Position numbers and translations under genes: made by a program
Notes under the pieces: model-generated
Told to the model about the DNA's origin: nothing
Databases searched by the model: none
The model's input: the letters and a program-made list of their open reading frames with translations, nothing else
In this document: one piece after another, positions 1-60,492 of the stretch
Layout: every line of letters starts with the position of its first letter
Position numbering within the stretch: position 1 is the stretch's first letter
Assembly: GCA_017654855.1 (NCBI GenBank)
Contig: CM030336.1
Location: 806,001 to 870,000 of the forward strand
DNA: 64,000 bases
Source: Podospora anserina
Taxonomy: Eukaryota
Reading direction: 5' to 3'

Positions 1-3000
1 TCCTTTATTTAATTAAAAGAAAATTATTTTTATTTTATATAGGATTACGGCGGATAGTAAATATAATATAATTAAAAGAAGTATTTAAGAAAAGATTATC
101 GAAAGTAAAGTTTAACCGGGTAATAATTTAGAAAAGCGATTATAGACTTTACTATTTACGCCTATTAGCCGGCTTTTTAATAATAAATAAATTTTTTTAA
201 AAGCCGTTATTCGAATTTATAATATCCTATTACTATATTATAACTTTATTTTATTAATTTTAAAAAAAATATTAATAATATTAAATATAAATTTAAAATA
301 TAATTTAATTAATAAAACTATAATTAAAAAATTTTATTTATTAATAATATCGATAAACCTATAGTTTAAAGGCCTTTATAGAAATTTAATTACGTTTATA
401 AATAAAATTTAAATTCTAATAATATTAATTAGGGTTTTAATTTTATATTATTTTTTTATTATTAATAATATTAAAGCTTTAAGTTTTTATAATCTATTAT
501 TAAATATTTTATTTTTTATAAATATAAACTTTACTTTTAATTTTATAAAGGGCTATATAATTAACGTAAATATATTATATAGGAGAAAACTAATTAAAAT
601 TTATATAGTAAAAAAAGAGGTAATTAATAAAATAAAAATAAAATATAATAATAAAAATCGAAGTAATACTTTTCTTACTAACTAACTTTTATAGGTATTT
701 AAAGGATTAATTAATAAAGGAATACTTATCTTTAAATAAATAACGGAGGAACTAAAAGAAAGGAATAAAGTAATTAAAGGACTAAATAAAAAAGTTAAAC
801 GTTTTTTATTTAATTTTATTTTAAAGAAATTAAGTTTATTATTATTAAATTATTATTTAACGTTTAATATTATTTTTTATAAAAATAAAGAAAAGGGGGA
901 TATTAAAAGTAAGGGAGGAAAGAATATTAATAATTAAAGGGAAAGAAAGAAAAAAAATATAAAAGACTATTAAAAAAAAAAGTCTTTATTTTAACTTAAA
1001 AGAGTAGAAATTACGATAAGAACTTTAACTTTAAACGAAATTTTAAAGAAAAAACGACCGTTATTACTAACCTTTATAATAAATCTATATTTAGTACTAT
1101 CGTTATTATTATTAAAAATATTATTACCGTTTAATTAAAAAATTAATAAAATAACTTTATTTAAACTTAATATAATATTTTTATATTTAAAAATATTTAA
1201 TTAATCCTTTATTTAATTAAATTAATATAACTTCTTTACTATATAATTATATAAATATTATTTACTTCCGTCCCCTTTTAAAAAAAAAATAATATAAAAA
1301 CTAACTTAATTATTATTTTTAAATAAATTTAATTAATATTTACGGATATTATTATTATTATTATAATATATAAAAAAGTAAATAAAAAAGTAAAGCCGGT
1401 TAATAATATTAAATTAAATAATAATATTCCTAAAGGAAATCTAAATTAAAAAGTAAAAAAATAGGCGGTAATTAAAGAATCCTTATAATATAATTTAGAA
1501 TTTAATAATATTATAATCCTTAAATTTTTTAAAATAATTAAAGGATTATACTTTACTTTAAAACGTTTAATTAATTTAATTAAATAAATTATTAATATTT
1601 TAATAAATTAAAAAATTAAAATATTTATAATAATTTTATTCGTAAAAGAAATTATATTAGTATAAGACTTTACCGAATATAAATAGATCTTTAAAAAAGT
1701 TTTCACTATTTAATATATTAGGACTATTTTTTATAAAGTATAATAAAATAAATTTATTTCGATCTTAAAGCTATTCGTAAAAAAAATTATTAATTTCTTT
1801 AAAGAACGAATTAAGAAAAATATTATTAAAGAAATATATAATCCTTACTATAATAATTAGTTTTTAATAAAGAAAAAGAATAATAATTTTTATTTAATTA
1901 ACGATACCTAAAAATATAATAAAGTTATATAACGAAATACTTTTATTTTACTAAATATTAAAAAGTTTAATAAAAACTTTATAGGATACTTTATTACTTT
2001 TTTATTTAACTTTTTTTCCGAATATAATTAAATTAAATTAACTTTAATAAATTAAAATTTTATTACTTTCGCGATACCTATCGGCTTATTTAAAATATAT
2101 ACCTTACTTTAAAAAATTATTAATTTAATAACTTAATTCTAAAAAACCGTAATTAAAGTCTTTTAAAATTTTATCCTATAAGTATATCGGCTATATTTAA
2201 ATAATATTATAATAAAAAAACTAAAGTAAAACTATAATAATAATAAAAAAAAGTTAAGAGTTAAAAAGTAGGTCCTAAAGTACTTAAAGAATATCGATAT
2301 AGTTTTATTTAATTATAAGCTTATAAGAATTATAATTATAATTATAAAATCCCTTTAATATAAACGGGAAATTATTATTTTTAATTATTTTTATATATCG
2401 GACAGGCATTTTCCTAATTAAATAAAAATAATAAAAATAAAGGAATAGCGAATTTATTATAATTTTAAAGATATTTATATTTTTTTAAAAATTACCGGCT
2501 ATTATCGGCTATAAATACTTTTCTTTAATTTAATTATAATTCTATTATATTTTTTAATAAGGAAGGATATAAGATAGGAATAAATAAAAGTTTAATAGGG
2601 TACGATAAAGTAATTTACTTTTTTAATTATAAAAGTACCGTATTTAGCTTCTCTAACGTTTAATAACGATTATTTCGGTAAAATCTTTATTATTTTTAAT
2701 ATAAGTTTAATAAAGTAGGGAACGGTAATTAAATAAATAAAACTTAATAAAAAACGGTATCCTTATTAGTTTAAAAATAGTATTTAAAGCCCGGCTAAAT
2801 AAAAATATAATATTATTAAAAGGGAGTTAAAAGGATTATTATATATTTTAAAGAGATTTAAAAGGTATTTTTTCGGGATATATTTTATAATAAAAACGGA
2901 CGTTTAAGTAGTAATCTACTAAGTCTAGGGGGCGGTTAATAACGTTCCTGGCGCTTTAATAATAAAATAATTAAAATAAATTAAACTTTTCGATTTTATA

Positions 3001-6000
3001 ATTATTTATATCCCTAAAAGTAAGAACTTTATAGTAAATATATTATCGAGAAAGCTATTTAATTCCTTTAATTTAAGGGAGAAAAAATTAAAATTAAATA
3101 TTAATAATAAAATTAATATAAAAATCTAGAAAAATAATATTTAAAAAGTAAGTATTTAATAAATAAATATTAAAAAAAAAAAAAAAAAAGTTATTAAGTA
3201 AAGCCCCTATTTAAATAAATTATAATTTCTTTACTCTTATATTATTATTAAGTTCCTCGCGATTAATACGGAATTAAGGGCTAAAACGAGGTTTAACGTT
3301 TAAATTATTAAAAATAATACTTTAAAAATAATTTTCGAAAACGGAATTTTATTTTTTAAATTAAATAAAAAAAGTTTTTTCCTTAAAAGAATTATTAATC
3401 TTTTAATCGAATAAAAAAAAATTTTTAATATATATTATAACGAAATAAATTATAAAGGACGGGAAGTTACTTATACCCGAATAATAAAAAATTATTATTA
3501 GAAAAGTATATATATTAATGTCGAGGCTTAAATTAAAATATATAAATAATATTAATAATAAAGCCCGAAACGTTAAGAGGATTAATATTTATATATTAAA
3601 CTTTTAATTACTTTATTTACGAAATAGTATTTAAACGTTTAATTTTTATTAATAACTTTAAAAAAAAAAGTTTATTTTTTAGAAGCGAGGGATAATTTAA
3701 TTAGGTATTTAAAAGTAAAGGTTTTAAATTTAAATAAGGTTTTTAAGGTTAAAAATTTTATTTTATATAATATTATTTTTAAATAAAGTTACTTTTTAAT
3801 TATAGTAGTGGACGGCGGATTAGAATTTAAAAAGGAAGTTATTAAGATTTTAAAGAGGTTAAGAGTTTTTCGGGTAATAGTTTTATTTTATAACGTAAAA
3901 GTAAATAGAATAACGGAGTTTAATTATATTTTAATTATATCGATATTAATAAAAATAATAAATAGGACGGGGAAAAAATAAAAATAATAGCTCCTTTATA
4001 TATTATTTATTAATAAAATTATAATATAAAGTATTTATAAATATAATATTTTTTATTTAGTATATAGGTTTAACTTTATTACGTTAATCGAAAAGGATAT
4101 ACCGTTATAGAGAATCGTTTAATAAAAAAAATTAGTTTTAATAAATTAAAGAAATATTAAAAGGAAAGAACGATTATAAATTTAATAAAAGTAAAGGCAA
4201 AACTATTAAAATCCCAGGAAATAAATCTAACTTTAATAGCTAAAAGGATTAATATAGTAAAATAAAAAGTTATAATAAAAAAGAATAAAAAAGGGATTTA
4301 TAATATTAAATTTAAAAATAATATAATTAAAAAGGGGGATTTAATATTAATATATAAAATAAATAGAAAGTTAAATATAAATATAATAAAGAAGCTATAA
4401 TATTATTAGGACGGCCCTTTTAAAGTAAGGAAAGTCGAACTAAATAATATTTATTATTTTTTAAAGATACTAAATAAAATATTATTATAAACTTTTTATA
4501 TATTAAATAAAGTAAAGAAGTTTTTTAGGTTAGAAAACGTATATATAAATAAAGAGGATATAGATATATAGTTAGAATTAAAAAAAATTAAGTAGGTATT
4601 TAAAAATAAAGTAAAGGAAGGTATAAATATAATGGAAAATAAAAATAAAGAAAAAAAGATAGTAGAAAAAATATTAAGGAGAATAATAATTAGGGGGAAG
4701 ACTTAGATAGAACGGAAGAATATTAAGGTATAGAAGAGATTTAAGAAGGGCAAAAGTATAGAGGTAGTCCTAAAGAAGGGTAAACTAAAAGACTTTTTAA
4801 ATAATTAGGGAGAAACAATAACGAAAGCGTTATAATTATTATTTTTCTTTAAAAGAATATTAAAATTTATATTATAAAAATAGAGCTATAGGAATTATTT
4901 ATTTTTAAAAAAAGGAAAGATATTAAGGGAAGTAATTAATTAAAATAAAGATTATTATATTAAATTTTTAATTTTTTTTTTTTCTTTTCTTATTATTTTT
5001 TTTTTCAATTTACTTTTCTTTTTATACCCCTTTCTCTAATTTAAAAAAATAAAAAATTATTTTTTTTTTTTCTTTTTTTCTTTCTTCTTATTTATTTATT
5101 ATTTCCTAAACTCTTTATATTTAACCCGCTATTTTTCCTACTCCTAATCCCAATCGACTTTCTTACTATTAAAAATTAAGTTTACGGTACTACGATCTAA
5201 CTTTAATAATTTACTATTATTAAAATCTTTAAAGTAAGGACTATTTTTATTAATATTAAACTATAAATAATAAATACTTTTATATTAATAATTTTTATAT
5301 TTCTAATCGAGGTTCTTTTTTCTTATATAACTAAAGTATAATTATATTACTTTAATTTTAATCTTATTAAAGAACGTTACGAAAAACCGGCGATAGTTTT
5401 AATTATATTTATTATATAAATTAATATAATTAAATTTAATATATTAATATTAAATTAAATTTAATTAGGGAGGCGGTATTTATAATAATCCGGTAATTTA
5501 AATAAATAAACCTTTAAAGCGATAAACCCGTTTAATAATTTCGAAGAATTAATATCCGAAGAATTATTTATTAAACCGTTTAACGAAAATCCGTTTAACG
5601 AAACCGGTCGATAATACTTTAAAAATATAATTAATAATAGTTTTATCCGTATTAATATCTTTAAAAAGTAATTACTATTCTTTTTTACCCCCCTTTTTTA
5701 TCGGATTAAGGAGGAATTATTTAAAGTAGAGGGGAATAGTTATATATTTAAAATTTAAAAGGAAAATCTTAAAATATTAAAAAGTAGTTTAATAAAGGAA
5801 AAAAATATTATAATAAATATTAATACTTTTAAGTATAATAAAATCGTAAATATAAATAGGATATTAAATTTAAACGTATTTTTTATAAGTAACGCTTTAA
5901 TTATTAAGAGTATAAGTAAGGTCGGTAAGATAATAAATAAGGATAGTAAGTAAAGGTTTTTAAATAAGGTTTATAGCGACCTCGGATTAGTTATACGTAA

Positions 6001-8530
6001 TAAAATTAAAAACTTTTTCGATTTAATTAAAAAGTTTTTTAACGAAAAAAATTATAAATATTTAAGTAGTAAAGTCGTTAACCGTTTAATCGAACGAAAT
6101 AATAGGTTTCTTTAAAAAAAAAGTTATTAAAAAAAAGCGATTAATAAGTATTAAAAAAGATAAGGAATAAATAGGAATAAAAAAAACTAATATAAGTATT
6201 TATAATTAGAGGATAGGACGGTACGATTAGTTTTATAAACCTCTATAGGAAAGAAACTTATTAAAGTATTCTTTCCTCCTTAAATAATTTACGTAATTAT
6301 TTAATAATTTTATTTTATAAATTAAATAAATAATAAAAAATAAAAACTTACCGAAAACCTTTTTCCCTTTTTAACTTTCTATTCTAAAAAAAATTCTTTA
6401 CTTCCCTTTTAATAATCCTTTAATTATAAATTATATTATATATTACTTCCTTTTAATTTTTATAAAATAATATTATTAATATTTTTTATAAAGTTTATTT
6501 ATAATATATTATAAAAAAAATTTATTACTATTAAGAAATTTAACTTTCCTAATAATTTTATTAAAAAAATTATTCGGAAAGCGCGTCTTTAAAGTATCGA
6601 TAGAGTTTATAACTTTAATCCCCCGCGTAGTATTTTCCTTTTTTAAAATAATAATATTTTTTAACCTATTCGTTTTAGCCTTAACTTAATTATTAACCTA
6701 AAAAATTATATTATAGGAAGGCGGCCCGATTAAATTAATATTACTTTTATAAAATAATTTTCGATTAATATTATTAAATATTTTTTTTTTAATTTAAAAA
6801 TAACGACCCCCCTTAATCGGACTTATATTTATAATATTTATATAACTTCCTTTATTTATATTATATATAATTTTTAAAATTAATTAAAAGTTAAATAATA
6901 ATTTATTAATTTAGTTTTTACTTACGTTTTTCGGTATTTTCTTTAAAAAATCCTCGAATATTATATATAAATTCCTAAAGAGCCTTTAAACTCTATTATA
7001 ATAAAATCGTTAATATACTTTTTTTTACCTAATAATAATTATAATACTTTTAATTAACGATACTAAGTTTTCTTTATTTATATTAATAACGGAAGTTATT
7101 AGGTAATAAATATTTACGACGTTACTATTAATATTTTAATTTATATAGATTCGTTAAAAGATTAAAAAGGGTATTAAATTAATATTATTTTTTATTTAAT
7201 ATTTTATATTCGTTATATTTTTTATTATAGTTTTAATATAAAAGTAAGGAGGTTAGTCTATAGTAAATAGGGCGGGGCGTAAGAATATAATTTTTAAGTT
7301 TTAAAGTATTATTATATTTATTTTTAGGGAAGTATTTTATACGGTAAAGAGGAGGATTTAATAGTAATAAAAATTTAAAAAGGAAATTATTATTATAAAA
7401 ATTATAAAACTATAAGCGTTACGGGGAAAAAATAATAAGGTTATAAATAATTTATATAAAAAGGTTTTTAAATTATAAATTTAATTAAAGGATACGTAAT
7501 AAAAAATAAAGGAGGAGGGGCTTAAAAGACTTAATAAACGTAAAAGAATTTAATCTATTAAATACTTTTTCGTTTTTTTTTAAGTTTTTATTAATTCCTT
7601 AATTTATTTCTTTCTTTAATTTTCTATTAACTTTAATTATTATTATTAAAGGAAATAAATACATTATAAATTTTTTTTTTAATTATAAAAGGTTTAAACT
7701 AAGTAACGTATTAAATAATTTTTAATAATTAAATAAAATAGTAACCCCCTTTAAGTTCCGTACTCTTATAATAATAAATTTACCGTTCTTTTTTAAACCT
7801 ATAATTACCTATCCCCCTATTTATAATTATTTAGGATCGCTAATAATATACCTTTCGCCTAATTATATATTTAGTTTTATAAAATAAAAGTAGGCTTTTA
7901 AAGTTTTTTAAAAATAAAAGAAGGAGGTCGTTAAGTTATTAATTATAATAATTTAATAGGGACGGAAGTATATTTTAAGATCCGAAAAGTAAGGATACTT
8001 TTTTTTTAATTAAGGGAGAATAAATAAAGGGATAATAAAATTATATTGTTTTCCTTTTTTTCTATTAAATAATATTTTTTTTTTTTTTTTATTTATAAAG
8101 GATTTTTTTTTTATATATATATTTACTTACTAGTTTATAGTAGTTAAATGTAAAGGGAGGTTTAGTTTAGGGTACGGCTATAAGCCTAAAAATATAAATA
8201 AGGAAGCGGGGCTTTTAGAGGACTTAGGGGTTCAGGGGTTATGTATATAAGCGGTCTGCTTCGGACATTCTATTTTAGACAGATTATCGACTTTTATTCT
8301 TTTCTTCGTATTTTGTGCCTTACACGCGTGCAGGCAATTCTGGCCCTCTGATCAGGCCAATCCGGTGCTTATTATGTGGCCTGCGAGCCTATAGTGTCTT
8401 TTCTTTGTCCTACGTGAAGTGCGGCCTGCGAGCGAGTCACTGTCACGCAGGTGTGTTCATTCTGAGACCTGTTGAGGGTATATTTGTGGTGTTGTGGTTG
8501 TTTTGTGTGTTTTCTCACTATTTCAGTATA
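1..8530 (+). mobile_element. RIP-degraded Ty3/Gypsy LTR retrotransposon (element A); 5' part lies outside the window
   Basis: Very AT-rich with TpA excess. Reversing C>T/G>A by eye recovers pol motifs on +: YKKVDKKVKPV-like (~1370), RT FLVKKKNG..RLINDAQ (~1860) and YLDD-like (~2195), RNase H DAS..GWG (~2700), integrase VVDGG.EFK (~3805). Pol ends ~4800; putative 3' LTR at 8149-8530. Confidence 0.85.
8149..8530. repeat. LTR (3' LTR of element A or a solo LTR)
   Basis: ~380-bp GC-richer block starting TGTA and ending TATA (RIP of TACA; alternative end TTTCA at 8525). Internal TATATAA at ~8244. GTTAAA on both sides could be a TSD. Confidence 0.6.
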
Positions 8531-11500
8531 GTTAAAAGATTTTATATTATTAAATAACCCGGAGTAAAAGAATACTTTTAAACGATATAACTATTTAGGA
8601 AACGACTCGCGGCCTTTTACGGGGGCCGGTAATCTTTAATAAACTATAAACGGTATTTTTAAAAGTATCGGCGTAAAGTAAAGATATAGGATAACGATCC
8701 GGTATTCGTTAGTAAGGTCGTTATTATATAGGGAAAAGGTAAGAAAGATAAACGCCTTTAAATTATAGCGTATTAAAAAAATATTTAGGTAATAATATTA
8801 ATAAACGAAGGTATAGAAATAAACCTAATTTCGTTATAATTTATATATTAAACTAAAATACTATAAAAAAAAATCGTTATATAAAAACTATTTCTAACGT
8901 AAAAGGTTTATAAAGAAATATTATTTTTAAATATTATAATTAAAGGAAAAATAATTTTAATTATATTCGATATTATAAATATGAAACCCTCGAAAAATAT
9001 AATCCTAAAGTAATTATAGTATAAAGACTATAACCTAAATATCGATTAAAGGGATAGTAGTTATTTATAATTAAAGATTTTTTAAAAATATTTAATTAAC
9101 GATAGGAGATTAAATATACGTATAAAGTAAAGTATAGGATAAATACCCTCTACGGTATTACCGTAAGGAGCCTAAAAAGTAATAATATATTCTATCGATA
9201 TAAGTAATAAGATCGAAGAAATAAGGTTAATAATATTAGTAGAAATATCGGAGGTTAATAAATATACTTATTATAATTACGTAGAAAAAGACGAAAAAAA
9301 GGCGGTACCGGTAGAATATCGAAGACACTTAGCCTTTACGGCTAAGTATTTAAAGGGATTTCTAGAGCGAGGATTATAAAACTATAAAATTAAATTAAAA
9401 AAAGGAATTAAACTACGGTTATTTAAAGTTTACTATATTAACGATAAATAGAGTAAAGAACTATAGAAATATTTAAATAAAAATTTAAAAAAAAGATATA
9501 TTAAGGAATCTATATCGCTAATAAAATACTTTATATTCTTTATACTAAAGAAAAATAATAATTTATAATTATATATAAATTACCGTTAATTAAATAACGA
9601 AACGGTAAAAAATAATTACCCGCTACTATTAATATCTAAATTATAGAGTTAATTAATAGAGGTATAATACTTTATACGCTTAGATATACCTATCGGGTAT
9701 ACCTATATATAGATTAAAAAAATAAATAAATAGAAAATAGTATTTCGTATACTCTATAATTATTTTAAGTATTTCGTAATACTATTTAAACTAATTAATA
9801 TATTTATAACGTTTTAATCTTTTATTAACTATATAATCTAAAAGTACTTTAATAAAATAATAATATATTATCTTAACGATATTTTTATTTACTTACGTAC
9901 TTTAAAGGAATATAAACGATATATATAAAAGATACTTAACGTACTATACGGAACCGGACTCTTAATTAATAAAAAGAAAAGTGAGTTCTATATATAAAAG
10001 ATAATATATTTAAAATATTTAATATTGTTAAATAAGGTTCGTATAGAATTTAAAAAAATTACCGTAGTTAAAGATTAACCTACGCCGTAATTATAAATAT
10101 ATATTAAAGAATTTTTAAAGTTTATAAATTTTTATCGGATATTTATTCGAAGGTATATAAATATTACGCGATTATTTAATTATTTAATTAAAAAGGATGT
10201 AGAATTTCGGTGGGGGTAGGAAAAGAAATAAGCTTTCTAAGAACTAAAAAAGGTTATTTTAAAGGACCCGGTATTTAAATTATTAAACCTTAATCGATTA
10301 TTTAAGGTCGAAATTAATATATTAAACTATACGATTAATAAGTAATTAAGATAGTAAGATAATAATAAAAAATTATATTTAATAATTTTTTTTTAAAGAA
10401 ATTAAAGGAGGTATATTAAAATTATTTAATTTATAATAAAAAGTTATTCGCTATTATTAAAATATTCGAAGAATAAAAGCCTTACTTTAATAATATTAAT
10501 TATAAAATATAGGTTTATATAGATTATAAAAAACTATGATATTTTATTATTATAAAGGTCTTTAACGCGCGGTAAACGCGATAGTTAAAGTTTTTTTCGG
10601 AATTTAATTTCTAAATTAATTATAAAAAAGGTTCGGAGAACGCTAAAGTAAACGTACTTAATAAACGTACCGACTACTATAAGGATACACTTAGGGAGTT
10701 ACTATTATTATTTAAGGAAGCGCTAGATAGTACTTTTAAATATCTATTATAGTCGTAAATAAGGTATTATATAGTATATCGCGAAAAAGCTACTTTTAAT
10801 AAATATTAAGGGAAGTTAAGTAGTAATATTATAAAATAATATTAATAAGAAAAGCTAAAGCTATAAAATATTTAAAAAAGTAGTTAGGGAAGACTATAGT
10901 ATAAAAATTAAATATACGTAAAGCTAAGTAATAAAATAGTATTAATAATAAATATTTATAGATTAAAGCTCGGAGGATATATAAATATTATAAAGATTAT
11001 AAAAAAAATTAAATAATATTTTAATTAATTAAAGATTAAAAATAATATTAAGGAAATTATTTAATTATATCATATATATAAAAAAACGAAGGTTATAAAG
11101 TATAAACCTTATAAATTTTTAAAGCTATTATTAATAGTAAAACGATTATAGAGTTTAATTATAATAAACTTTATTATTAAATTACTAAAGTTTAAAAATA
11201 CGGTAATCGGTATTAAATATAATAATATATTAATAATAATCGATAAGCTTATTAAATAAATATATTTTTTATATTATAAAGAAATTTAATTAGTAAAATA
11301 ATTAATAAATATAATATTACGGTATATTATAGTAATATATATATAGTTAAAGGAATTTATTATAGATCGTAATATTAAATTTATATTAAAATTTTAAAGA
11401 ATATTAATAACGAGGTTAAAGGTAATAAAGAAAGTATTTTCGGTCTATTACCCTTAGACGGACGGTTAAACGGAACGGCTTAATTAAATCGTAAAATAGT

Positions 11501-11745
11501 ACCTACGGAATTATATTAATTTCGAGTAAAATAATTAAATTAAATTATTATTTATAATATAATTAACGTATAATATATCGTTAACGGAAACTATAAAAGT
11601 TATACCTTTCTTTACGAATTTCGGTTATAAGGTGGACCTACAGTAGGGACTTACGGTTAAAGTACTTAAAGCTAAGGTTAAAATAAATAAAATATATATA
11701 TTCTATAATAAATTTAAGTAAAAACTAAAGTTTATAAAAGAAAGG

Positions 11746-12377
11746 TGTTAGCTGGTAAGCCCTGATAGGCCTATAATATAGAACCTATACAGGGTTGCTG
11801 TAAAATACAGCAGTGCGCAAGCGGAAGCGGGAGGATACGACGGCAGTGCCGAAGGAAGGTAAAGCACTGTAATACAGTGAGGTATAAGGAATAAGAATTG
11901 CCTTTATTACCCTTGGCCTTGGCCTTTGGCCTTAGCCTTAAGCTTTTGCCCTTAAGGAAAGAAAGAGAACTATTCTACAGGAGAGAGGAGAGGTCTATAT
12001 ATAGGCTTTTGTAGGCCTACTGTGGATCCTGTAGGCCCTGGAAGCCCCTATACTATTTTAGGTATTTAGTGGGCTTAGGTGAGTCTAGTGTAAACTCACG
12101 GAAATCCATCGAACCTTCGGTAGCAAGGGTGCCCTGTAAATCATGCTATTGTGGCGACTTACTACGTAAGCCTGTAGCTACTTTAGAAGGTTCCAGTATC
12201 CTATTGACTAAGCCTTAGGCCACAGTAGCCCTGTAAGCCTTCAAGGGTCCCTTATAAAGAATATTCTAAAGGGATCTAAGCCGGGAAGTTCTATTACTGC
12301 TTATAGCAGTACTGCCCACTGTAATATTAATCTGTAGGGCAGTAAGTAGGGCACTTAGTAGTACCCACACATTAACA
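11746..12377. repeat. Solo LTR, 632 bp, no TSD (probably recombinant)
   Basis: TGTTA...TAACA termini. Nearly identical to 14154-14786, differing almost only by transitions. Flanks AAAGG and AATTA do not match. Confidence 0.9.
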
Positions 12378-13489
12378 AATTATAATAAACTTTATTACTA
12401 AATTACTAAAATTAAAAAATACGGTAACCGACGTTAAATATAATAGTATATTAACGGTAGTTAATAAGTTTATTAAGTAAGTATATTTTTTACTTTATAA
12501 AGAAATTTAATTAATAAAGTAATTAATAGATATAGTATTACGGTATATTATAATAATATATATATAATTAAAAAAATTTATTACGGACTATAATATTAAA
12601 TTCGTATTAAAATTTTAAAAAGCGTTAATAACGAAGCTAAAGGTAATAAATAAAGTATTATTAGTTTACTATCCTTAAACAGACGGTTAAACGGAATAAT
12701 TTAATTAAATCGTAAAATAGTATTTACGGAATTATATTAATTTCGAGTAAAACGATTAAATTAAACTATTATTTATAGTATAATTAATATATAATATATT
12801 ACTAATAGAAACGACTAAAATTATATTATTTTTTATAAACTTTAAATATAAGGTAGACTTACGGTAAGGACCTAACGTTAAGGTATTTAAGGCTAGGGTT
12901 AAAGTAAATAAGTTATATATATTTTACGGTAAATTTAAATAAAAATTAAAGTTTATAAAGGAAAGGATACGGAAATATTATAATATTAAAAGGCTTAAGG
13001 GACCTTACCTTAAAAGGAGGAATATAGTATTCCTTTCTATACGTAATTTATGTACTAAAAAACCTAATAAAAAGCTGGACTATAGGAGAATAGGCCTATT
13101 TAAGGTTAAAAAAAAGATATTAGAAACGGTATTCGAATTAAAACTACCTAGTACGATACGTTTAAGGTTATATACCTTTTATATTTTACTTTTGGAACCT
13201 GCATTACCGGTAAGTAAAACTAATATATAGGTAGTGGCGGAGAATAAAAAAGAAAAATACGATATAGAAAAAATATTAGATTTATAGTTTAATAGAAATT
13301 AATTAAAGTATTTAATTAATTAGTTAGGATATCCGGCTATAAATAATTTATAGAAATTAAAAGTAAATCTTAATTACCCGAATAAATAAAAAGAATTCTA
13401 TTAATAATATTTAAATTAATTAAAATCTAAACGATAAAAAGATCCGTACCCAAACTATAGAGGGGTATTTATAAATTTAAATACGGAAA

Positions 13490-13559
13490 AACCCCGACGG
13501 GAGTCGAACCTATACCTTCGACGTGGCGGTTAACGTACTATAATCTACACTATAAGGTT
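13490..13559 (-). ncRNA. tRNA-like sequence (GCC in a 6-nt anticodon loop) inside Gypsy element B
   Basis: Minus strand folds as a cloverleaf: acceptor AACCTTA/CGGGGTT, D stem GTGT/GTAC, anticodon stem TTAAC/GTCGA, T stem ATAGG/CCCGT with loop TTCGACT. B box GGTTCGACTCC. T run at the 3' end. Stem mismatches are all G>A/C>T type. Confidence 0.7.
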
Positions 13560-13610
13560 AAAAGGTATAAAAAGATTTAAATATAAATAATATTATATAT
13601 TTTAATTACT

Positions 13611-14897
13611 TTAGGAAGGGGAAGGCGCACTAACGGCGGTATTTTAGGAGGTTAGGAAGGAAGGACTAGCTACGCCGGGGTCCAGGGAGAGGTCAGGTGG
13701 CTAGTCGAAGCCTAAAAAAGGATTTAGGAAAGAAAAGTCGGTACTAGGAGTAATAGTAGTAGGAGGATCGAGCGTAAGTATTACCTCGCTAATAATAGCG
13801 GTACTTTACTCCGATAAATATTATTTTTACTAACGAAGGCAGGATAAATATATAATAGTTTCCTATACTTTATATATAGCTTTTTCGGCTTTATAGTAAA
13901 CGTTTAAAAATCGCTTTTCGGCGGCTAGTTCTTTTAAAAATAAATAACGATATTCGGTAATTAAGTATTTAACTAAATAAAGTTAAACGGAGTATTAAAA
14001 AAAGGACGGACTAACTAATTTATAATAATAAAAGTGCCCGACGTATTATATAAATAGCTTTAACGTATATATTTACCGTAACGAAAAAAACGTTTATAAA
14101 GATAATAAATTAAATTACGGTAATATAAAAAAAATAAAGTATAATAATAAAACTGTTAGCTGGTAAGCCCTGATAGGCCTATAATATAGAACCTATACAG
14201 GGTTGCTGTAAAATACAGCAGTACGCAAGCGGAAGCGGGAGGATACGACGGCAGTGCCAAAGGAAGGTAAAGCACTGTAATACAGTGAGGTATAAAGAAT
14301 AAGAATTGCCTTTATTACCCTTGGCCTTGGCCTTTGGCCTTAGCCTTAAGCTTTTGCCCTTAAGGAAAGAAAGAAAACTATTCTACAGGAGAGAGGAGAG
14401 GTCTATATATAGGCCTTCGTAAGCCTACTGTGGGTCCTGTAGGCCCTGGAAGCCCCTATACCACTTTAGGGTATTTGGTGGGCTTAGGTGGGTCTAGTGT
14501 AAACTCACGGAAATCCATAGAACCTTCGGCAGCAGAGGTGCCTTGTAAATCATGCTATTGTGGCGACTTACTACGTAAGCCTGTAGCCACTTTAGAAGGT
14601 TCCAGTATCCTGTTAACTAAGCCTTAGGCCACAGTAGCCCTGTAAGCCTTCAAGGGTCCCTTGTAAAGAACATTCTAAAGGGATCCAAGCCGGGAAGTTC
14701 CATTACTGCTTATAGCAGTACTGCCCACTGTAATATCAATCTGTAGGGCAGTAAGTAGGGCACTTAGTAGTACCCACACATTAACAAAAACCTTTAAAGT
14801 TAATAAAAGCAGTTAAAGTTAAATAACGATAGTATTATAGATTAACGTTCGGAATAAAAAATTATAAGGATTTAAAAACTCTATAAGGGTTAAATAT
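13611..14897 (-). pseudogene. RIP-degraded antisense ORF of element B: Zn(II)2Cys6-like cluster plus coiled coil, split by solo LTR 14154-14786
   Basis: Six TAT/TAC codons (RIP products of TGT/TGC) spaced C-x2-C-x6-C-x8-C-x2-C-x6-C at ~14048-14136, allowing one 1-nt indel. Frame continues across the solo-LTR TSD. Probable intron ~13973-14019, then ELAAEKRF.. coiled coil and an acidic/Pro tail. Confidence 0.6.
14154..14786. repeat. Solo LTR, 633 bp, with 5-bp TSD AAAAC
   Basis: TGTTA...TAACA termini. AAAAC at 14149-14153 and 14787-14791. Second copy at 11746-12377. Confidence 0.93.
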
Positions 14898-14999
14898 TAT
14901 AGTAATAGGGAGAAGAAAAGGATTTATAAATAAAGAAAGTAAGCGATAAACGGTTATTTTAAGCTTTAAATTGACGGGACTTCGACCTAAGAGGAGGGG

Positions 15000-15423
15000 T
15001 ATTATATTATAATTAAGTTAAATAGGTAGGACGGATTATATATAAAGTATAAGACGTATAGTTAATCGTTAGTAAGACTAATTAGGATAAGGATATACGA
15101 TTATAGATAGTAGACTAGGAAAATAGAGTAATCGCGGTAATATAATTAATAAGGAATTATAAAGGATTATAACGATTATTATAATTATTAGGAACAAGCG
15201 GAATAATTACTATAATTAGAGCTTAGCACAAGGTCTATATATACGGAGGAACTAACTAATATAAATAGATAGTTCCGCAATATGTAATTTAGCTTATATT
15301 TACGGTATTTAGTATTTATATTAAAACATCTTATTATGCACTGTTTAGCTGCACCGAACTAATTATTAGAAGTTACCTTTAACTAGTATCCCTTTCAGAG
15401 GTTCTGTATAGGGGTTCGTCACA
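15000..15423 (+). repeat. 3' LTR of Gypsy element B
   Basis: Follows the polypurine tract, starts TATTAT (RIP of TGTYAC), ends GTCACA, internal TATATATA ~15236. Abuts transposase sequence at 15424. Confidence 0.75.
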
Positions 15424-16981
15424 AGTAAATAACCCTCTAAGCCTCACACGTATTTTTTTAGCTCTCCGGCGCTTACTTAATCCTTTATTAGCCTTATAGA
15501 GCGAAGAGACCTCTATACGAAGGAGAGCTACCTAGTATATTACAGTTATTATACCCTTAATAAATTAATTTACCGTAATTAATATTAAAGTCGGGAAATT
15601 ATTTTAATAATTAATAATATAAGTCTTAATAAACGTTAATTATAAATTAGTTTCTCGAGGGTTATATAGTATTTAAGAGATTTAAAGTTATATAATATTA
15701 GGCTATAAGTTTAAAAGTATTAACGTATAAAGCTTTATATTTAGTTTAGAAAATACTTTTTTTAAATTATATAATATAAAGTTAATACCCGTAAAGCTAC
15801 TTTATATATTTTTTTTATTATAAAAGCGAAAAAAGCTTTATAGAAAGTATAATGGAATTTAAATTTATTTATATAATTAATATATATATATATTGAATCC
15901 TCGATTTAATAACCATACGCCTATTTTAATAGCTTAATATAATTAATATTAAATAATTAAAGGAGGTAAGAAGAGTATAGAGATATATAAAGCATAATAA
16001 TATTATTTTATTAATAATAACGTTTAAATTTAATCGAATAATTATTTTTATAGCCGTCGAAGATTAATAACCGGTATTTACCCTTTATATAAAGCGCTAT
16101 ATAATAATCGAAATACTTAATTTAATTTAAATTTATTATATTAATAATTTAATTATTATTAATAATTATAATATATTAAATAAATAATAAATTATATTTA
16201 ATATATTAATTAATAAAATAATATTACGCGGCTAAAATAATAAAAGGAGGGATAGTTTAACTGAAAATATTAATTTTTTAAATTATAATTATTTATTCGC
16301 GGTTATTAAACTAAATTAATTTTACTTTACTAAAACCGTCCGAGGTCGTAATTATTATATCCGCGAAAATAATATTTATTATAAACTTAGTTTCGTCGAA
16401 ATTATAAATATCGTTATTTATAATACTATATTTAACTTTAATATTTTATATAAGCGTAAACTACTCGGTAATAACCTTTAGATTTACGCACTTAGCTCTC
16501 TAATAATTATATTTACGCGTAAAACGCGTATCGAGTTATAACTAACGTTTAACAAAATTATATACCTAATGTTTACTAATAAAGGGCGCGTCGCGTATAC
16601 GTAATAATTAATAAACTATATCTTCTACACCACGTAATTTTAATAGAAAAGCTCGCGTATATAGTTTAATAACGTATTAAATAATAGCCTCCTCTTCGGA
16701 TTAAGTAAGCTTCTTCGATTTGGGCGTAGTATCGCGTCGTGCAGGCCGGCCAGCGCGCCGACGCCCTAGAGTCTTACGATCGACTCCATAGATCTTAGCT
16801 GCGGCTCGTTCGCTTAGATTCTTATCGTTTTGAAGTGCTTGGAGGGCTAAAATTATGTGGGCTTCATTTGAATCAGAAGGCATCTTGGATAGTTGAGGAA
16901 ATTGTTATTGAGTGCGAAGGTGTTATGTTACGAAGGAAGTGGGTCACTCGCTTATATGGGTCACTCGCTTATAATATACGT
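15424..16981 (-). mobile_element. pogo/Fot1-type Tc1-mariner DNA transposon, RIP-degraded, 3' end cut off by Gypsy insertion
   Basis: ORF 16883-16701 is an HTH-psq transposase N-terminus. Downstream CENP-B/DDE remnants (NFDET ~16390-16404; LSKRRRAKK ~15455-15481). Terminus ACGT at 16978-16981 followed by TA. Two GGGTCACTCGCTTATA direct repeats in the TIR (16941, 16958). Confidence 0.9.
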
Positions 16982-17912
16982 TACATAGTATATGCCTTGT
17001 TGAACTGGTAAAGTATGGTGTGGTTCAAACAGCTCAATAGGCCAGGCAAAGGACAATCACATAGTGAAATACAACTTTGAGATGATCTCACACAACAATC
17101 CATCATCTGTTGACCTGTTGCCGATTGGGGAAGAAATTACTATCGAGCAGCACGTTGCCGCAGCCTCTGAGTCTGGACTTCCCAAAGTGGACGGCGGCGA
17201 AAGATCGGTCCAGGCCCTTGGGCTTATCTTGCAGGAAAATCTTTATTGAAATCTCGCATGTCTGCTTGATCTGCAGGTTTATCACTCAACTGCGCTTACT
17301 ATTCCCGACGTAGGTACTGGGGGAGGGAGTGTGTTTAGTGTCCAGTGTTTGACGGAAGGAAAACCCCAAAAATTTCAGAACCCTCATTGACCATCTCCTG
17401 ACCCCTCCTCCACACCGTAAACAAAGCGATCAGCATCACAAGAATCTTAACACTTCCGCCGTATACTTTGCGACTTCTCCCAAATAGACATGGTAGCTGT
17501 TCCTTTTTTTCTTTTTTTTTCCTTTGTTTTTTCCTTGTCTGATGTGGCATATCGGCTATTTTCCAGGACCGACTTAGCATCTCCCGTTCAGTGTAGGTCC
17601 ATCTTGAGACAATGGCCGAGGGACCTTGTTGGGGCGTTATCTGTAAACGGACCCATCTTGAACCTACTTGGTGAAGACTGTAGCGTGTGTAGGCATGTAA
17701 TAAGTAAACATCCACCTTCAAGTCTTTTTGGATTCCCATCTAGACTGACGGCTATGAATATTGGTGTTTTCAGAATGTTGAAGAGATCTTTAGATGTATT
17801 GCAAGAGCACTGGTTGACATTATTCATCAAGAATCGGTAAACATTCACAGGTGGGAGGCCGGTAATCTTAGCTTGTTGAGTTAGAACCACTGACTTTTGC
17901 TCTATGTTGACA

Positions 17913-24367: not shown

Positions 24368-27300
24368 TCAAGGCTTACTCAACTGCTCCTTCCTAAAAAA
24401 CGTCCCAAAAGCCACACATATCCCCCCCTGCATCAACAAACAAACCCAAAACCACCCATTCCCCAACCCATCCAGACTCAACGCCAAATTGGGAAACACC
24501 GGCCCCGGCCCAACCGCGTTCGGCGCCGTCGCCCTCCCCACCGCCGTAGCCACACTCCCCAGCACCTGCGCCGCCACCAGCGCAAAATTGTTGTGAAACC
24601 TCGTCGTGGTCTGCAAAAGCATCATGCCCACCCCCGTGCCTTGCAACGCATCCAAGACCCCGAGCCAAAGCCATAACGATCTCGACAGCAGAGCCCCGCC
24701 CACGTCTGATGCCCAGGGGAGGGAGGTGCCAACCCCGGAGACACCCCAAAAGATTTGCGCCCAACGTGGTGCGCCGAGGCCGATGGCGAGCACGGGGAAG
24801 AGCCAGCTGTGCTCGCGCGACAGGTGGGCGAGTTGCCAGAAGAGCGCGATCCAGATTAGGCCAAAGAAGAGGATGATGAGCAGCAGGATCTGCCAGGGTT
24901 GGGCGTGGGCCGTCGTCCAGAGGAAGCGCCAGCTGCGGCCGTAGTTGGAGGAGAGCCAGTAGTTTTGGATTATGACGGAAACGAGGAAGCACTGGGCGAG
25001 ATGTCAATATGTGTGAAAGGTAGGGTGAGTGATGATAAACTTACGATAATTAGCTTGCGTCGGAAAACAGACTTGAAAAATGATGGGATGGACCCCGGAG
25101 TTTGGCGGTAGTAATCAGGCAAGCCGAGGTGGGTGACAACCGCTAATGCCATCATCAGCACCGCAACAGGGAGACAGACGGCCGACACAATCGTGTTGGA
25201 TGCCCGCGCCATGGGGATACCGTTGCTGTCGTAAGAACTGAGAAGAGATCCCCAGTACCAGAGACCGCTGATGTAAATCTGCTGTACACCCTGCACAGCG
25301 CAGGCACGGATGACCCATGTCCTCACTGGCGCACCGCCCTCGTCGCCAAAGTTGAGAGCAAAGAACATTGATCCGCTGGAAGATGCTGCTGCATACAGCC
25401 CAGAGGCTGTGTTCTGGACCCAGCCTCGCGCATAGAATGACTGCGCAAACGGCGCGCAGCCAGCAAAGAGAAAGGCAAGACCGTAGATGGCAAAAGGTGT
25501 AGACAAGACCCAGACAGATTTGAGATTGCGGGAACCGACCCACCAGCAAATGGACGTAGCGGCGTAAATCGAGGCAATAGTGTAAAGCGTTCCCGCTGTT
25601 TGACCCTGTTCGCCATTGAGCAGGGAAATCTGGTACGAGTTGGCAGCTAGGATTTGTCCAAGCGCCAAAATGAGAGTGTAAATAGGCCAGTCAAACACCT
25701 TTCGAAGCATGAACTTCTGCATAGCAGTCGTATGCGCCACGGGAGGCACATCTTCCGTCTCAAAAGTGGAAACATACTGCCCATGAGTGGCATGCAATTC
25801 GTCTCCATCCTCGGCTGAGTAGACCGAAGACGCAATACTGGGTGTGTAGGGGCTTGCTGGGCGGGATGGAACATCCAAAAAGCGAGGATGAACACGACCT
25901 GGCGAAGGTGGTTCCACAAGAGTGACCTTGGATGTGTTTCGAGACGAAGATAATCCGAATTTGATGCTCTTGTAGTCTTGGAACCATTGCTTTTCAGACC
26001 GGACCAGATATTGCTCAATGCAGAGATCGGTCTCTGAAGATTTGGCATCAAGATTCGCCAACATCTTCTGGAACTCGACAGTGTATTCGCCATCAGTGTC
26101 CGTGAAGAACGGGTCAACCTTTTGCAGTGCAAAGTCCTTGCGCCCTTTGGTGACAGAACGAATAGAGACATCTGAGTACCTCTTGGTATTTGGAGATGGC
26201 AGAGGAGGCATAAGTGGCCATCCTGCTGCATCAGACATCGGACTTCTTCCACCTGATGGCAGGCCGTTGTAGCCAGGCGTGAGAAACGAGGTAGGAGTGA
26301 TGGGTCGGCCAGACTGTAGTTCTGTCGGTGTGGGTGAAGCAGAACGTGAGAGATTTGTCTTGGAGAGTCCCACAAGTCGGAGGTGGTCTGGCTTGTCCCT
26401 GTGCTTCTGAGACTTTTGGATTGATGTGCTGTGAAGCTCGCTGATCTCTTCTACCCATCGCGCGACTGGGAAGCGCTGTTTGGCTGAGACAGCTCTCATC
26501 TTCGCACGAGTCTCGGTATCTGAGGCGAGGGCGCCCTCGATGGCATCTTTGAACTGACTGATGAGATGCTTGGCCGATGTTGATTCGACAGTGTAATACC
26601 ACCCGGGCATGTTCCCGAGGCCACCTGAAACTTGTTAGCCTTGACTGTAAGACTCGATCAGGGATAACGCTTACCAACTCGAGCTCCCACCCCCAACGCT
26701 CCTTTCCTCCCAAATTCCACTGCCACCAAGCCAAACGGCTCGTCGCGAGATGGAATAAGCGCAAACTCAGCACCACTGAAGATATATGGAGGCAGCTGTG
26801 TAAACTCTGGCTTGGAGAAAACCCGACCAGGATACTGCTCCATAAGTCTTGCCAATTTGATAGCAGCCAACTTGCCATAGAGGTCGATAACTGGCCCGAT
26901 AGCAATCAACTGCACCTTTGGATTGTGCTCCAACACAGACGGGAACACGTCTGCAATAATATCCACCCCCTTCTGCATAGACCATCGACCAACAAAGACA
27001 AACAATTCAGCATCTGCATCTTGCTTCAGGCCAGCCCATTCCTGGGCCTGCCGACGGAGCCCAGCACGCTTAGCTTCAAACTCGCCATCAACGTGAACCT
27101 TCTCAGCCTGGGAAGCTGCCTCAAGCTCCGGCGACCACTCAGCTGTGTCCGAAGGATCTGGATTTGGAAGGCTTCCAATTTTTGAGAGGCCCCAGAAAAT
27201 TGGATATCGTGCAAAACTTCTCTTGCCATACTTCTTGGAGACTCCCACCGCTCCGAAGCCGTGTTGGAACTCCCGCAGATAACTAGCTCCCGCGTGCAGT

Positions 27301-30300
27301 AAGTTGAAGACCTCGCCAAATTGCACAAATCGTTCCACAACCTTCTGGTCCAAGTTGAAAACCTTGCAGACCTCCTCCTTTTCTTCTTTCGTTCCAAGGC
27401 TCCACATTCCCTGAAATTCGGCGTTGTGAAGAGAAAGGCAGCATGGAATAACACGAGGGAGTAGGTACAATGGGGCAAGGGCGCCGTGGAAGTCGTTGAT
27501 GTGGTAAATGTCCGGGTTGAAGCGCTTCAAGGCCTCGGAAATACACTGATTCCAAGCCGAGTAGTAAATGGCGCTGTCAAGATCATCCATTCTTTCCGGA
27601 TACGGATTGGCGGGTGTTTGAAGGCGGAAAACTGGTGCATCGAGCAGAACGTAGGTGATATTCCGGAGCGTGTGGTATTGAACATCGACATTGTACTGAG
27701 AGCCGAGAATCGTGATCTCCATAGGCTCGGCACGTTGATCAACTGGGTACCCATTAGGATATGCGTTCTCAAGACCCCCAACACACGGGACGACCCAGAT
27801 GATATCTAGATGGCCAAGAGCTTTGCCCATCAGTTGTGCCATCACACCAAGACCACCGATCTTGATCTTGATCTTCCAGTCTTCGATATCGTACTCCATT
27901 GTGGCAATGAGGGCCTTCTTGCGAGGAGCCCCAATGTCCATATGAAGGCCTTGGCCATTCAACCCTCTGCCGGTTGTGTGTGATGTCCCGGGCCGTGTTG
28001 GACCACCGACAGAGGATGCATCAGACGAGGGTCGACTCGGTCGAGACAATGGCTTTTCCTTCATTTCGAAAACTTGCCGGAGCTTCTCAGACAGTTTACC
28101 ATGCTTCGTGACAGCGCCCGAAACATTGTGCTTGACTTTGTAAAACGACCCGGTGAATGTGAAGACGACGAGCCATCCCGTAAGCAACGGCAACACCCAC
28201 ATGAGCGAGAAGATTGTAATCTGCCGTACCCTGCTGCCTGCTGGAAACTTGCTGTATCTCATGGTGGCATCGTCCACTTCAAACCGCCATCCCACAAAAG
28301 GGGAAGGGGGAGACTCAGTGATGTTGACAACATTTTGCCTCAAGGACCCAGGGGGCAGTCTGTCAAGCACATAGTCGAAGTTGACATCACCGAAAATCCA
28401 CGTCTGGTCCGGAAGACCATCCGGGTTCAAGCCCCAAACGTTAAATTGCAGAGCGGTTGGCCACTCAGCCATGATATCGACAGACCAAACACCACTATCG
28501 GCCTTCTGGAGCATCTTGTTTGGAATGCCTGCGTCGAACCCGAACGCATTGAAGTGACCGTTGATGAAGAGGTGGGGGAAACGCCGGGGTAGGTTGGATG
28601 CATCCAGGTCACCTTCTTGCTGGTGATGGCTACTTCCAGCAAGCTTGCTGTAGTACTGACAGACGACATGCTCGCCAGTCCAATCCTGCAGGTTTGTTCC
28701 TGTCCAATTCTTGGCTGGTAGCCTGTAGTCTTCGCCCGTGTAATCGAGCCATGGGGTCCAGTTCGAGCTCCATGTTTGAGAACATCGGAACTTGGTGGCG
28801 CCTGCTGCTCTGTGGCGAACAAAGATGTCCTCTCCTTTAGCGTAGACAAGCTCCCTGGAGTAGTTGGCATGTCTGGGGAAGACCATGGGATTGTTCTGGG
28901 GTCCAACTCGCAACAGGAAGTGATCCGTTGATCCCGTACTGCCCGTGCCCGCTTTGTCGGTGGCATTCCGTACTGTAATGCGATGAATGCCATCGGGAAT
29001 GGAGTTGATTGTGGCGGCGAATTCCCACACCGATGCGACCTGACCAACGTATTTTGTGGAATTTTCAACGACATTCAGCTTCTTGCATCTCAGGGACCCC
29101 CTATTGAGCGACGCAACAGCTCCGCCGACCGTGTTGGATGTAATCTCGATGGAGTTGAAAACACCCTCACAATCCATCTCCTGTGAAAAATGTATCTGTA
29201 TCTCCACAGATGTTTTGCCGTCCTTGGCAGACTCCAAGCGATAGTCATGACCTGGGAGGAACCTGGTGATGACAGGAGCTGGGCCGACCCAACTTTCGAC
29301 GGGAACAAAGGCCTTGAACCCCCAAGCGGGGAAGCTGAGCTCACTCAAGCAGCCGTGAAATAACTCATCTTCATTGTCATCAATCCGCTTGGTCGAAGGT
29401 TCAAGTGTGTACTCCTCATAGGGGTATAGGAGGTTCCTGACCGTGGCACCTGCTCCGAAGGCTGATAGCAAAGCTGTCTGAGGATCAGAGCAGTTGAACT
29501 TGTAGTTGATGGTCCTGTTCTCGTTTCCTAGCATTAGCCACACCGGGTCCTCGCCATGAGGTACTGACGAAAAGTTTTGCAGTTGTTGATGGGGCATTCT
29601 GATGTAGCTCCATAGACCCAGCTCTGTGCCAGTTCCGTTTGATCCGGGAAGGTAGATCCAGTTGGTATAATTCGATAATTGGTACATCTCAAAGCCATCG
29701 TTAAGTGCCGGGTAGACTGTTCTTAGTTCCAGAAATCTCTTGACGACTGCTCGGATTGGGTGTGAAGGATCACGATGATCGAGGCTGACGTTGGGATCGT
29801 CGCAGCCGTAGAGGGCAGCGTCGAGGGGAAAATTGAAGTACTTTTCAGATCCGACTTTGTAGCAACCGTGAAGCTCCCATGCATTCGTTGAAGTCATGGG
29901 CTGACGACCGTAAAGATAATTACCGGCGATGTTTTCGAGCACATAAAAGGCCTGCTCCTCGCCCCAGTTGACGATGGGGATGCCAGGCATCAAGAGAGAC
30001 ATGATGAAGGCGCCAACCAGGTACTTTTGCGTTCCATTTTGAATTGATGGCCAGCGGAAGACATCTTGGTTGGACACGCCAAACATGTGACGGGGGTCGA
30101 ACTTGCCAGTGTTGGCGTTGATAAAATCCGTCGTCATGAGCATATCTTGCCACCCCTCTGCCCAACTGATCCGAGTATCCATTTCAGCGCCGTATTCGCC
30201 ATCGATGCCGAGAAATCGTGTGAGAGCACGATAAGCAGAATAATGAAAACAGGCAGAGTCCAGCGCTTGTACGGGACGAATATACGAAGACGGGCTTGTT

Positions 30301-47004: not shown

Positions 47005-47860
47005 ATATATGTGGTGGGTAAATGACCCTTTGGCACCCGTTGTTTCCACGAGATGCCACTGTCGAACAATGTGGGTGTGGCTGGCCACAAAGAAGCCTTT
47101 CTTGGACCTCTGTGTCACATCAACCCCAGTATGTGCTGTCATACGTCAAGCTAGTGGTTTCTGGCAGGTACATAGCATGATGTGCTTCCTTGATGTTGGC
47201 ATCCCATCATATCGGGGACAAAATAATGGGGCCCTGCAACCGGCCAGTAGGCCTTCAAAGATCATTGAAGCCCTGTTAAAACAGATCCAAGGCCTATTGA
47301 CAACTCCTTAAGAATATCAACTCTCTTTGCAGGTATGTCAACTATACTAATAAAAGAGATATGACCTCTCTTTGATGGTCTCTTTGCTGTGTTCAAGAAC
47401 CCTTATCCCAAGTTTGAGTAGCAGTGTCTATTTTTTTTTGTCCACGGCGTGCCCATGTGATCGCTGTCTTGGTGAAAGCCACAGGTCTGAAAGCCAGCAC
47501 ATGCAATGAGTCAGCAGCTGCCTTGGATGTGGCGCAAATCTCCACCTTTTCCGAGGTGGCAATTGGCTGGGTGCACCGCCGCAAGATACGTCTCCCCTCC
47601 ATTGTCCAGACATTTTTTGGGGATCGCTTTTGTTATGACGCAGCTTCCCTCACGCCTTTGCCCGACAGTCGAGTCCAGTCCTGTGCACTGGGTCGTCACT
47701 AAAGGCGCCGGTGAAGGTCTAGGTATCATTCTCCATTCTAAACCACAGCTTTACAAAAACATCCCTTTGCGATCTACTTAGTTGTATAGCGCCTTGTCTG
47801 TTTTCCCCGCCAAACAACCAACACCCCGCATCGTGAACTTTATTCGAATCGTTGGCAGCC

Positions 47861-60395: not shown

Positions 60396-60492
60396 TGGGC
60401 GACCCCGGAATCGAACCGGGGTTTCTTCGGATCGTATGTGATGTTCTGAGAACAACCACAACGAAGCGTCCTGACCACTAGACTAGTCACCC
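60396..60492 (-). tRNA. tRNA-His(GTG) with ~25-nt intron
   Basis: Acceptor GGGTGAC/GTCGCCC, D arm, anticodon stem CTTCG/CGAAG with TT-GTG-G then intron, T arm CCCGG-TTCGATT-CCGGG. Confidence 0.95.

Follow-up and report, generated by a model that had tools for sequence, protein, structure and literature searches.

How does a tRNA-like sequence come to lie, in antisense orientation, directly behind the pol gene of a fungal chromovirus, and did it belong to the element? The question is raised by a stretch of 64,000 nt from Podospora anserina (contig CM030336.1; hereafter the window), of which positions 1-17000 form an AT-rich block (GC 0.13-0.38) followed by a gene-rich stretch with a GC content of about 0.52. 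P. anserina is a dung saprotroph with active RIP. An initial annotation of the block had recognised a tRNA-like Pol III gene, carried antisense in the 3' region of an element damaged by RIP, and had taken it for a captured unit that could supply a primer, act as a TFIIIC insulator or terminator, or produce antisense RNA. The features discussed here, including this sequence (hereafter the relic), are collected in Table 1.

Table 1. Features in and around the AT-rich block, in positions of the window; the RIP substrate index is (CA+TG)/(AC+GT).
Feature	Position	Strand	Basis or remark	RIP index
E2, second copy of the E1 family: protease, RT, RNase H, integrase core A	8790..11745	+	Pfam, self-comparison; protease by eye	
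LTR B, other family, TGTTA...TAACA	11746..12377	+	GC 0.45	0.85
E1, RIP-saturated chromovirus copy, 3' part	12378..13437	+	Pfam, translation, homologue P0001	0.02-0.17
E1 integrase core A'	12378-12966	+	translation	
E1 SH3_Tf2-1	13024-13200	+	Pfam	
E1 chromodomain	about 13255-13400	+	translation, homologue P0001	
E1 in-frame stops past the chromodomain	13402-13407, 13417-13419, 13435-13437	+	translation	
RIP-saturated post-pol DNA holding the relic	13438..14153, resuming 14787 to ~15450		~1.37 kb in total	
10-nt direct repeat ATAAAAAGAT	13434..13443 / 13567-13576	+	would bound a 123-nt insert	
Candidate polypurine tract, AGAGGGG then TA (putative LTR start, TG to TA by RIP)	13459..13467	+	read from sequence	
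5-T run at relic 3' end, possible weak Pol III terminator	13487..13491	minus	read from sequence	
RIP-decayed tRNA-derived relic, apparently Gly-GCC-like	13490..13559	minus	Infernal, ARAGORN, B box, pair count	
Alternative candidate polypurine tract, 13-nt G-rich purine run	13613..13625	+	read from sequence	
LTR B', solo LTR, TGTTA...TAACA	14154..14786	+	flanks 0.03 and 0.07	0.90
pol, A and A'				0.02-0.06
Zone before the relic	12967-13440			0.17
Relic zone	13441-13600			0.15
Zone behind the relic	13601-13850			0.20
Zone before B'	13851-14153			0.03
Zone behind B'	14787-15100			0.07
Genes				1.28

The relic was aligned by Infernal with the Rfam tRNA model RF00005 from end to end (model positions 1-71 of 71; 13559..13489, minus strand), so that the coordinates and strand given initially are right. 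The score of 16.8 bits lies below the gathering score of 29, with an E value of 1.1 for 501 nt searched with 4227 families; rescaled by arithmetic to the 64-kb window and the single tRNA family, E is about 0.03. At the Rfam gathering threshold the relic is not reported, and the sole tRNA listed in the window is an intact tRNA-His(GTG) on the minus strand at 60396-60492, with a 25-nt intron and 53.5 bits, which is itself missed by ARAGORN in its default no-intron mode. The consensus B box that had been claimed is present: 11 nt of the relic, GGTTCGACTCC at 13510..13500 on the minus strand, match exactly. The pattern GGTTCGANTCC has two matches in the window, the relic and the tRNA-His gene, where 0.11 would be expected, and at least two matches occurred in 2 of 100 shuffles. 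The A box is only partly kept in the Infernal alignment.

In the Infernal pairing, the 21 stem pairs comprise 12 Watson-Crick, 6 G.U and 3 A.C pairs and no pair of any other type; thus, each non-canonical pair can be derived from a canonical one by a single C>T or G>A change, precisely as had been asserted for the stem mismatches. When the relic's 21 pair positions were slid over both strands of positions 1-17000, giving 33,860 sliding windows, the relic was the only one with no other pair; none had one, and three had two. This pattern, transition-compatible throughout, is far from chance. ARAGORN found no tRNA at this place at its default setting or at a 90% threshold; at 80% and 70% it drew a 71-nt cloverleaf labelled 'Gly|Arg'. 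With an end-to-end alignment and an exact B box, the derivation from a tRNA that was first proposed is upheld, and the relic, judged from its sequence, is a real, tRNA-derived and mutation-riddled copy of a tRNA gene, now dead. From its anticodon loop it looks Gly-GCC-like, presumably resembling eukaryotic tRNA-Gly. The 6-nt loop with GCC described in the initial annotation is the one drawn by Infernal, whereas ARAGORN at the 80% threshold draws 8 nt; neither is the 7-nt anticodon loop of a tRNA gene. The D loop, AGAUUAUA in the Infernal alignment, has no GG, so that G18, whose absence had been noted, is indeed missing, as is G19. The earlier view that the relic is not a decoding tRNA holds.

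Past the discriminator there is no CCA and, as in a gene copy, a T run. Five T are indeed present, but as a terminal T run they are weaker than they sound, since three of the five are tRNA positions, namely the discriminator and two acceptor-stem bases; moreover, RIP can turn C into T, a caveat for reading the run as a terminator. As RNA, the relic has a predicted folding energy of -14.5 kcal/mol against a shuffle mean of -16.4 kcal/mol (141 of 200 shuffles were at least as stable), and its minimum-free-energy fold is not a cloverleaf. It was also correctly stated not to be a primer-binding site, being a full-length, gene-type copy without CCA that lies behind pol rather than at the 5' LTR. 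Besides itself, no site complementary to its 3' end was found in the window, a search in which at least one match occurred in 31 of 100 shuffles. No further copy of the relic exists within the window by the Rfam gathering search or the GGTTCGANTCC pattern, and 13560-15400 holds no other tRNA-like sequence, one chance microRNA match (E 8) being all that was returned.

The element beside the relic is a plus-strand Ty3/Gypsy pol riddled by RIP, recognised by the Pfam models RVT_1, two RNase H models and SH3_Tf2-1, and present as two copies, E1 and E2. One stretch of integrase core occurs in both, as A in E2 (11157/11158-11745) and as A' in E1, and self-comparison gave 82.7% identity between them, with 91 transitions and 11 transversions. 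In E2, a protease-like stretch was seen by eye near 8790-9080; gag, a zinc knuckle and a 5' LTR were not found in this copy. A purine-rich run in the integrase coding region, at 11736-11745 in E2 and 12957-12966 in E1, resembles a central polypurine tract and lies exactly at the junction with LTR B. The end of pol in E1 was placed with P0001, a protein of 773 aa with a chromodomain (PF00385) on record and the lone long homologue, only 1 of 1658 candidates having passed. The alignment of P0001 covers 12379-13371, and a projection of the last 17 residues of this protein reaches about 13423. Together with the in-frame stops past the chromodomain, this puts the near end of the relic, at 13490, 52-88 nt after pol; it thus lies directly behind pol, the initial annotation having placed the cloverleaf about 60-130 bp after the chromodomain/pol end. 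These 52-88 nt are all the DNA between pol and relic, and no LTR lies there. E2, in contrast, is cut at 11745, where it is joined to the foreign LTR B, and has lost everything past the integrase C-terminus; therefore, the relic region exists in the window in one copy only.

A scan of viral contigs with P0001 found no relative. A metagenome scan with a transition-degenerate T-arm/acceptor motif returned 3 loci, all of them prokaryote- or phage-type tRNA clusters (Gln, Glu, Lys). Among sequencing runs, 16 of DNA type contain about 0.8 of the sampled words; no RNA run was listed as containing them, and small shares occur in four runs that may be RNA.

The relic region appears at first sight to be bracketed by a pair of LTRs, B and B', which are 632-633 nt long and 96% identical (24 transitions, 1 transversion), and which self-comparison paired as 11720-12379 and 14129-14788 at 95% identity. 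These bracketing repeats are foreign, later LTRs. B' is flanked on both sides by AAAAC (14149-14153 and 14787-14791) and is therefore a solo LTR that was inserted later. B has no target-site duplication and abuts exactly the end of A in E2 (11745) and the start of A' in E1 (12378), which identifies it as a recombination scar between two insertions, joining E2 to E1. Their RIP indices mark both as sharp, nearly un-RIPed islands in saturated DNA. In the most economical account, two old chromovirus copies each received an insertion of a later LTR family, and recombination between these insertions left one LTR joining the left part of E2 to the right part of E1. Solo LTRs that escape RIP and ectopic recombination between LTRs have been reported in the Podospora complex (PMC10787394). 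Two other arrangements were considered and rejected. B and B' could have been the E1 family's own LTRs, in a deleted copy nested in a full one, but they are nearly un-RIPed and B' has its own 5-bp duplication; and B, A', the following DNA and B' could have formed a single element inserted in E2, but the E2 sequence does not resume after 14786. Apparent LTR pairs in such transposon nests can thus be later solo LTRs joined by recombination. Since B' is not E1's own LTR, the 3' region that holds the relic is not bounded as first appears.

A partner for the post-pol DNA was sought by BLAST after purine/pyrimidine recoding. This method recovered only A/A' and B/B', and relaxed settings gave noise equal to that of shuffles. 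In 1-9300 the best hit reached 58 bits, which was matched by 8 of 20 shuffles (the A/A' control scored 1078), and in 17501-64000 there was none. With no LTR partner for this DNA, E1 has no LTR that can be assigned to it and may be truncated. A Pfam search in six frames of 13400-17500 returned only a weak HTH_psq match (E 0.0016), which belongs to the RIPed remains of a Fot1/pogo-like DDE transposase (minus strand, about 15450-17000), where DDE-type motifs were also seen by eye.

RIP provides the evidence on timing. That RIP acts in P. anserina is stated in its genome paper (PMC2441463). In the relic 1 CpA, 1 TpG and 9 TpA are left, and its zone has an element-like index, in agreement with the initial view that it was present while RIP acted. 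As the relic is RIPed and the later-entering B and B' are almost untouched, it was present early in the life of the E1 copy, which favours arrival with or before the element over a late private insertion. Nevertheless, RIP leaks into adjacent single-copy DNA, up to at least 930 bp from a repeat in Neurospora (cited in PMC2973834), so being RIPed is no proof of membership in the element. A host gene at 50 nt from a repeat would be just as likely to show such damage, and RIP therefore does not separate arrival with the element from arrival before it.

Two layouts of the DNA behind pol are possible. In the first, AGAGGGG at 13459-13465 would be the polypurine tract and the TA after it a RIPed TG, a change at LTR starts that the methods of the crapaud paper mention as a caveat of RIP (PMC10787394); the relic would then begin 24 nt inside U3. 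In the second, the 13-nt run at 13613-13625 would be the tract and the relic would lie in a 3' UTR of roughly 200 nt, where it could be part of a 123-nt insert between the 10-nt direct repeats.

Our preferred reading, which we hold tentatively, is that the relic was a tRNA-derived passenger in the 3' tail or at the U3 start of the element and was RIPed with it; we infer a joint arrival with the element, and neither an earlier nor a later one. tRNA-derived DNA would have inserted earlier into a parent copy, as is thought for the LTRs of Helenus and Cassandra, so as to lie antisense either in a short 3' UTR or, within the 3' LTR, in roughly the initial 100 nt of U3. The integration of E1 would have brought this segment along, and RIP would then have mutated it with the element, breaking 3 stem pairs, weakening 6 and erasing most CpA/TpG. 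While intact, the passenger may have used its internal promoter to bind TFIIIC and Pol III, yielding a short antisense transcript. The position argues for this reading: at 52-88 nt past pol the relic occupies the normal place of spacer, polypurine tract and LTR, so a relic inside the tail or LTR requires no loss of an LTR, and structure thus favours a place inside the element. AGAGGGG with the TA behind it, 24 nt ahead of the relic, points the same way. The argument is weakened by the lack of an identifiable LTR for E1. Against a passenger it also counts that the relic is found in one copy only, E2 lacking the region, and that 13560-15400 holds no second tRNA-like sequence. As precedent, 'not a few' LTRs in Repbase are said to contain tRNA-like segments (PMC10886601), and the subfamilies of crapaud, the main chromovirus of the Podospora complex, have a hypervariable 5' half of U3 (PMC10787394); on the other side, the latter paper never uses the word tRNA in its main text.

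The relic could instead descend from a host locus at this site: a host tRNA gene would have been there first, transposons would have piled up around it, E1 would have lost its 3' LTR in a local rearrangement, and RIP leaking from both sides would have killed the gene. We consider this doubtful. In its favour, the block is a nest of elements with LTR-mediated rearrangement and the Fot1/pogo-like relic, neither an LTR of E1 nor a partner of the post-pol DNA can be identified, and what follows the discriminator is gene-like. However, the deletion would have to remove the whole 3' LTR, spare pol, the tail and the purine run, and end some 25-50 nt from the gene. The arrangement also differs from known tRNA-targeted insertions. 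Ty3 and the Dictyostelium elements DGLT-A and Skipper-2 target tRNA genes, with an LTR between coding part and tRNA gene and at fixed distances, whereas here the tRNA sequence has the element on its 3' side and no LTR separates it from pol; the likeness is that of an LTR element beside a tRNA gene. The genome (35.5-36 Mb, 52% GC, chromosome 5 rich in nested repeats) is described as having 361 tRNA genes, which by arithmetic with ~36 Mb gives about 0.17 expected per 17 kb (PMC2441463). RIP leakage, which this reading needs, is documented in Leptosphaeria (Van de Wouw 2010, PMC2973834), and would explain C>T and G>A damage in a short sequence that RIP does not itself target; that study concerned effector genes, whereas here a tRNA gene would be affected and the damage is near saturation.

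A private, later insertion, in which a tRNA-derived retro-copy or SINE-like unit of 95-123 nt entered the tail of the dead E1 during RIP, appears unlikely to us. Podospora RIP is weak and slow, which would leave time for such an event, and direct repeats of 9 nt (13475-83 / 13575-83) and 10 nt (ATAAAAAGAT) flank the unit. With the 123-nt unit removed, the pol stop, a spacer of about 40 nt and the 13-nt G-rich purine run would follow each other in canonical order. Neither repeat is significant, however: the 9-nt repeat is equalled at 6.4-6.7% of control positions (p 0.064-0.067) and the 10-nt repeat at 13.9% of 2980. The space for a body is at most 46-85 nt and there is no A-rich tail, and the later arrivals in the block are un-RIPed whereas the relic is RIPed. 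The P. anserina genome paper does not use the word SINE in its main text (PMC2441463).

A more far-reaching reading, to which we give little credence, is that the lineage built its variable 5' U3 by antisense capture of a host tRNA gene, and that the exact B box was a TFIIIC/Pol III site at the 3' border of every copy. If true, antisense capture would be a way both to diversify U3 and to provide heterochromatin or transcription insulation that is not described for autonomous fungal Gypsy elements.

We consider it very improbable that the relic descends from a selected, family-wide Pol III unit of the chromovirus, serving as primer, TFIIIC insulator or terminator, or source of antisense RNA. 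Its position and early presence would fit such a unit as they fit a passenger, and the B box, the main TFIIIC contact, is exact; as the B box contains no CpA or TpG, however, RIP would have spared it anyway. Cassandra shows that a usable Pol III promoter can reside inside an LTR (PMC10886601). On the other side, the window contains one copy only, the 3' end of the relic is complementary to nothing else in it, the defects of the anticodon and D loops go beyond what transitions alone explain, and the RNA does not fold. Being antisense to the element, the relic cannot drive its transcription as the corresponding parts of Helenus or Cassandra do. The primer, insulator, terminator and antisense-RNA functions of the initial annotation find no support here, and the present sequence is dead.

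Finally, a chance resemblance in AT-rich DNA, compatible with a score below the Rfam gathering score and the ARAGORN default and with a thermodynamic fold no better than that of shuffles, is considered extremely improbable in view of the end-to-end Infernal alignment, the exact 11-nt B box (0.11 expected) and the pairing, with the relic alone among the 33,860 sliding windows in having all 21 pairs transition-compatible.

tRNA-like sequences in LTRs are already known from the Helenus TRIMs, also called 'TRIMp3' (Kojima 2024, PMC10886601), which are non-autonomous elements of 311-1263 bp with a tRNA-like part in both LTRs, in sense orientation and presumed to be the promoter. The fungal members, described from Pucciniales and a few Agaricomycetes, are linked to Copia (PMC10886601). 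The earlier statement that a unit like the relic had not been described must therefore be narrowed: it stands for autonomous Gypsy elements of ascomycetes, for which no report was found in open-access literature text, but fungal LTR elements with tRNA-like LTR sequences are known. In its main text, the Helenus study makes no use of the word Ascomycota (PMC10886601). Like the relic, the Helenus segment is tRNA-derived, has a conserved B box, belongs to a non-coding part of an LTR element and is unlikely to be a working tRNA, and its proposed origin is an insertion of tRNA-derived DNA into an LTR, with fungal examples (PMC10886601). Unlike it, the relic is a single antisense copy beside the pol of an autonomous ascomycete chromovirus, with no LTR pair. 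Helenus is recognised by tRNA-like parts in both LTRs with a primer-binding site and a polypurine tract between them, and the surroundings of the relic have no direct repeat partner in the window; for the 5-bp target-site duplication around a Helenus element or solo LTR, the candidates here are the non-significant repeats of 9-10 nt. The relic thus falls outside the definitions of Helenus and of a primer-binding site, and, with no significant duplication and at most 46-85 nt for a body, probably also outside that of a SINE.

The Cassandra TRIMs of plants, as described in the same study, share with the relic a module derived from a Pol III gene inside an LTR element, but this module is 5S rRNA in sense orientation, its transcription has been shown, and the elements are non-autonomous (PMC10886601). 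Closer by host is crapaud (Westerberg 2024, PMC10787394), a chromodomain Gypsy element of the same host group, whose full copies are RIPed to 14% GC, whose solo LTRs mostly escape RIP and in which ectopic LTR recombination occurs. E1 and E2 are at most candidate crapaud copies, and the post-pol DNA has no likeness to the crapaud-LTR-sized GC island at 8149-8530. This un-RIPed, GC-rich island of about 380 nt, situated where gag of the old element is presumed to be, is probably a third solo LTR: its first bases are TG, a TATA-like motif follows after about 100 nt, and GTTAAA flanks it on both sides. In size it would fit the crapaud LTR (about 400 nt; PMC10787394).

As it stands, the relic illustrates how RIP destroys a short copy of a Pol III gene within a nest of transposons. 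Were it family-wide, tRNA-like LTR modules would extend from the non-autonomous TRIMs of basidiomycetes, animals and plants to an autonomous ascomycete chromovirus, and the relic could offer a clue to the diversification of U3 in Podospora LTRs.

Two host genes were recognised in the gene-rich part of the window. One is an alpha-1,3-glucan synthase-like ORF on the minus strand (26658-30713). The other is a VID27 ORF on the plus strand (47790-50432), 99% identical to a cluster of 10 proteins, six of them named, which are P. anserina S mat+ PODANS_5_830 of chromosome 5 and those of five sister species; the next named matches are Cercophora samala (93%) and Triangularia setosa (92%). By this ORF the window is assigned to the P. 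anserina complex and, within it, to chromosome 5.
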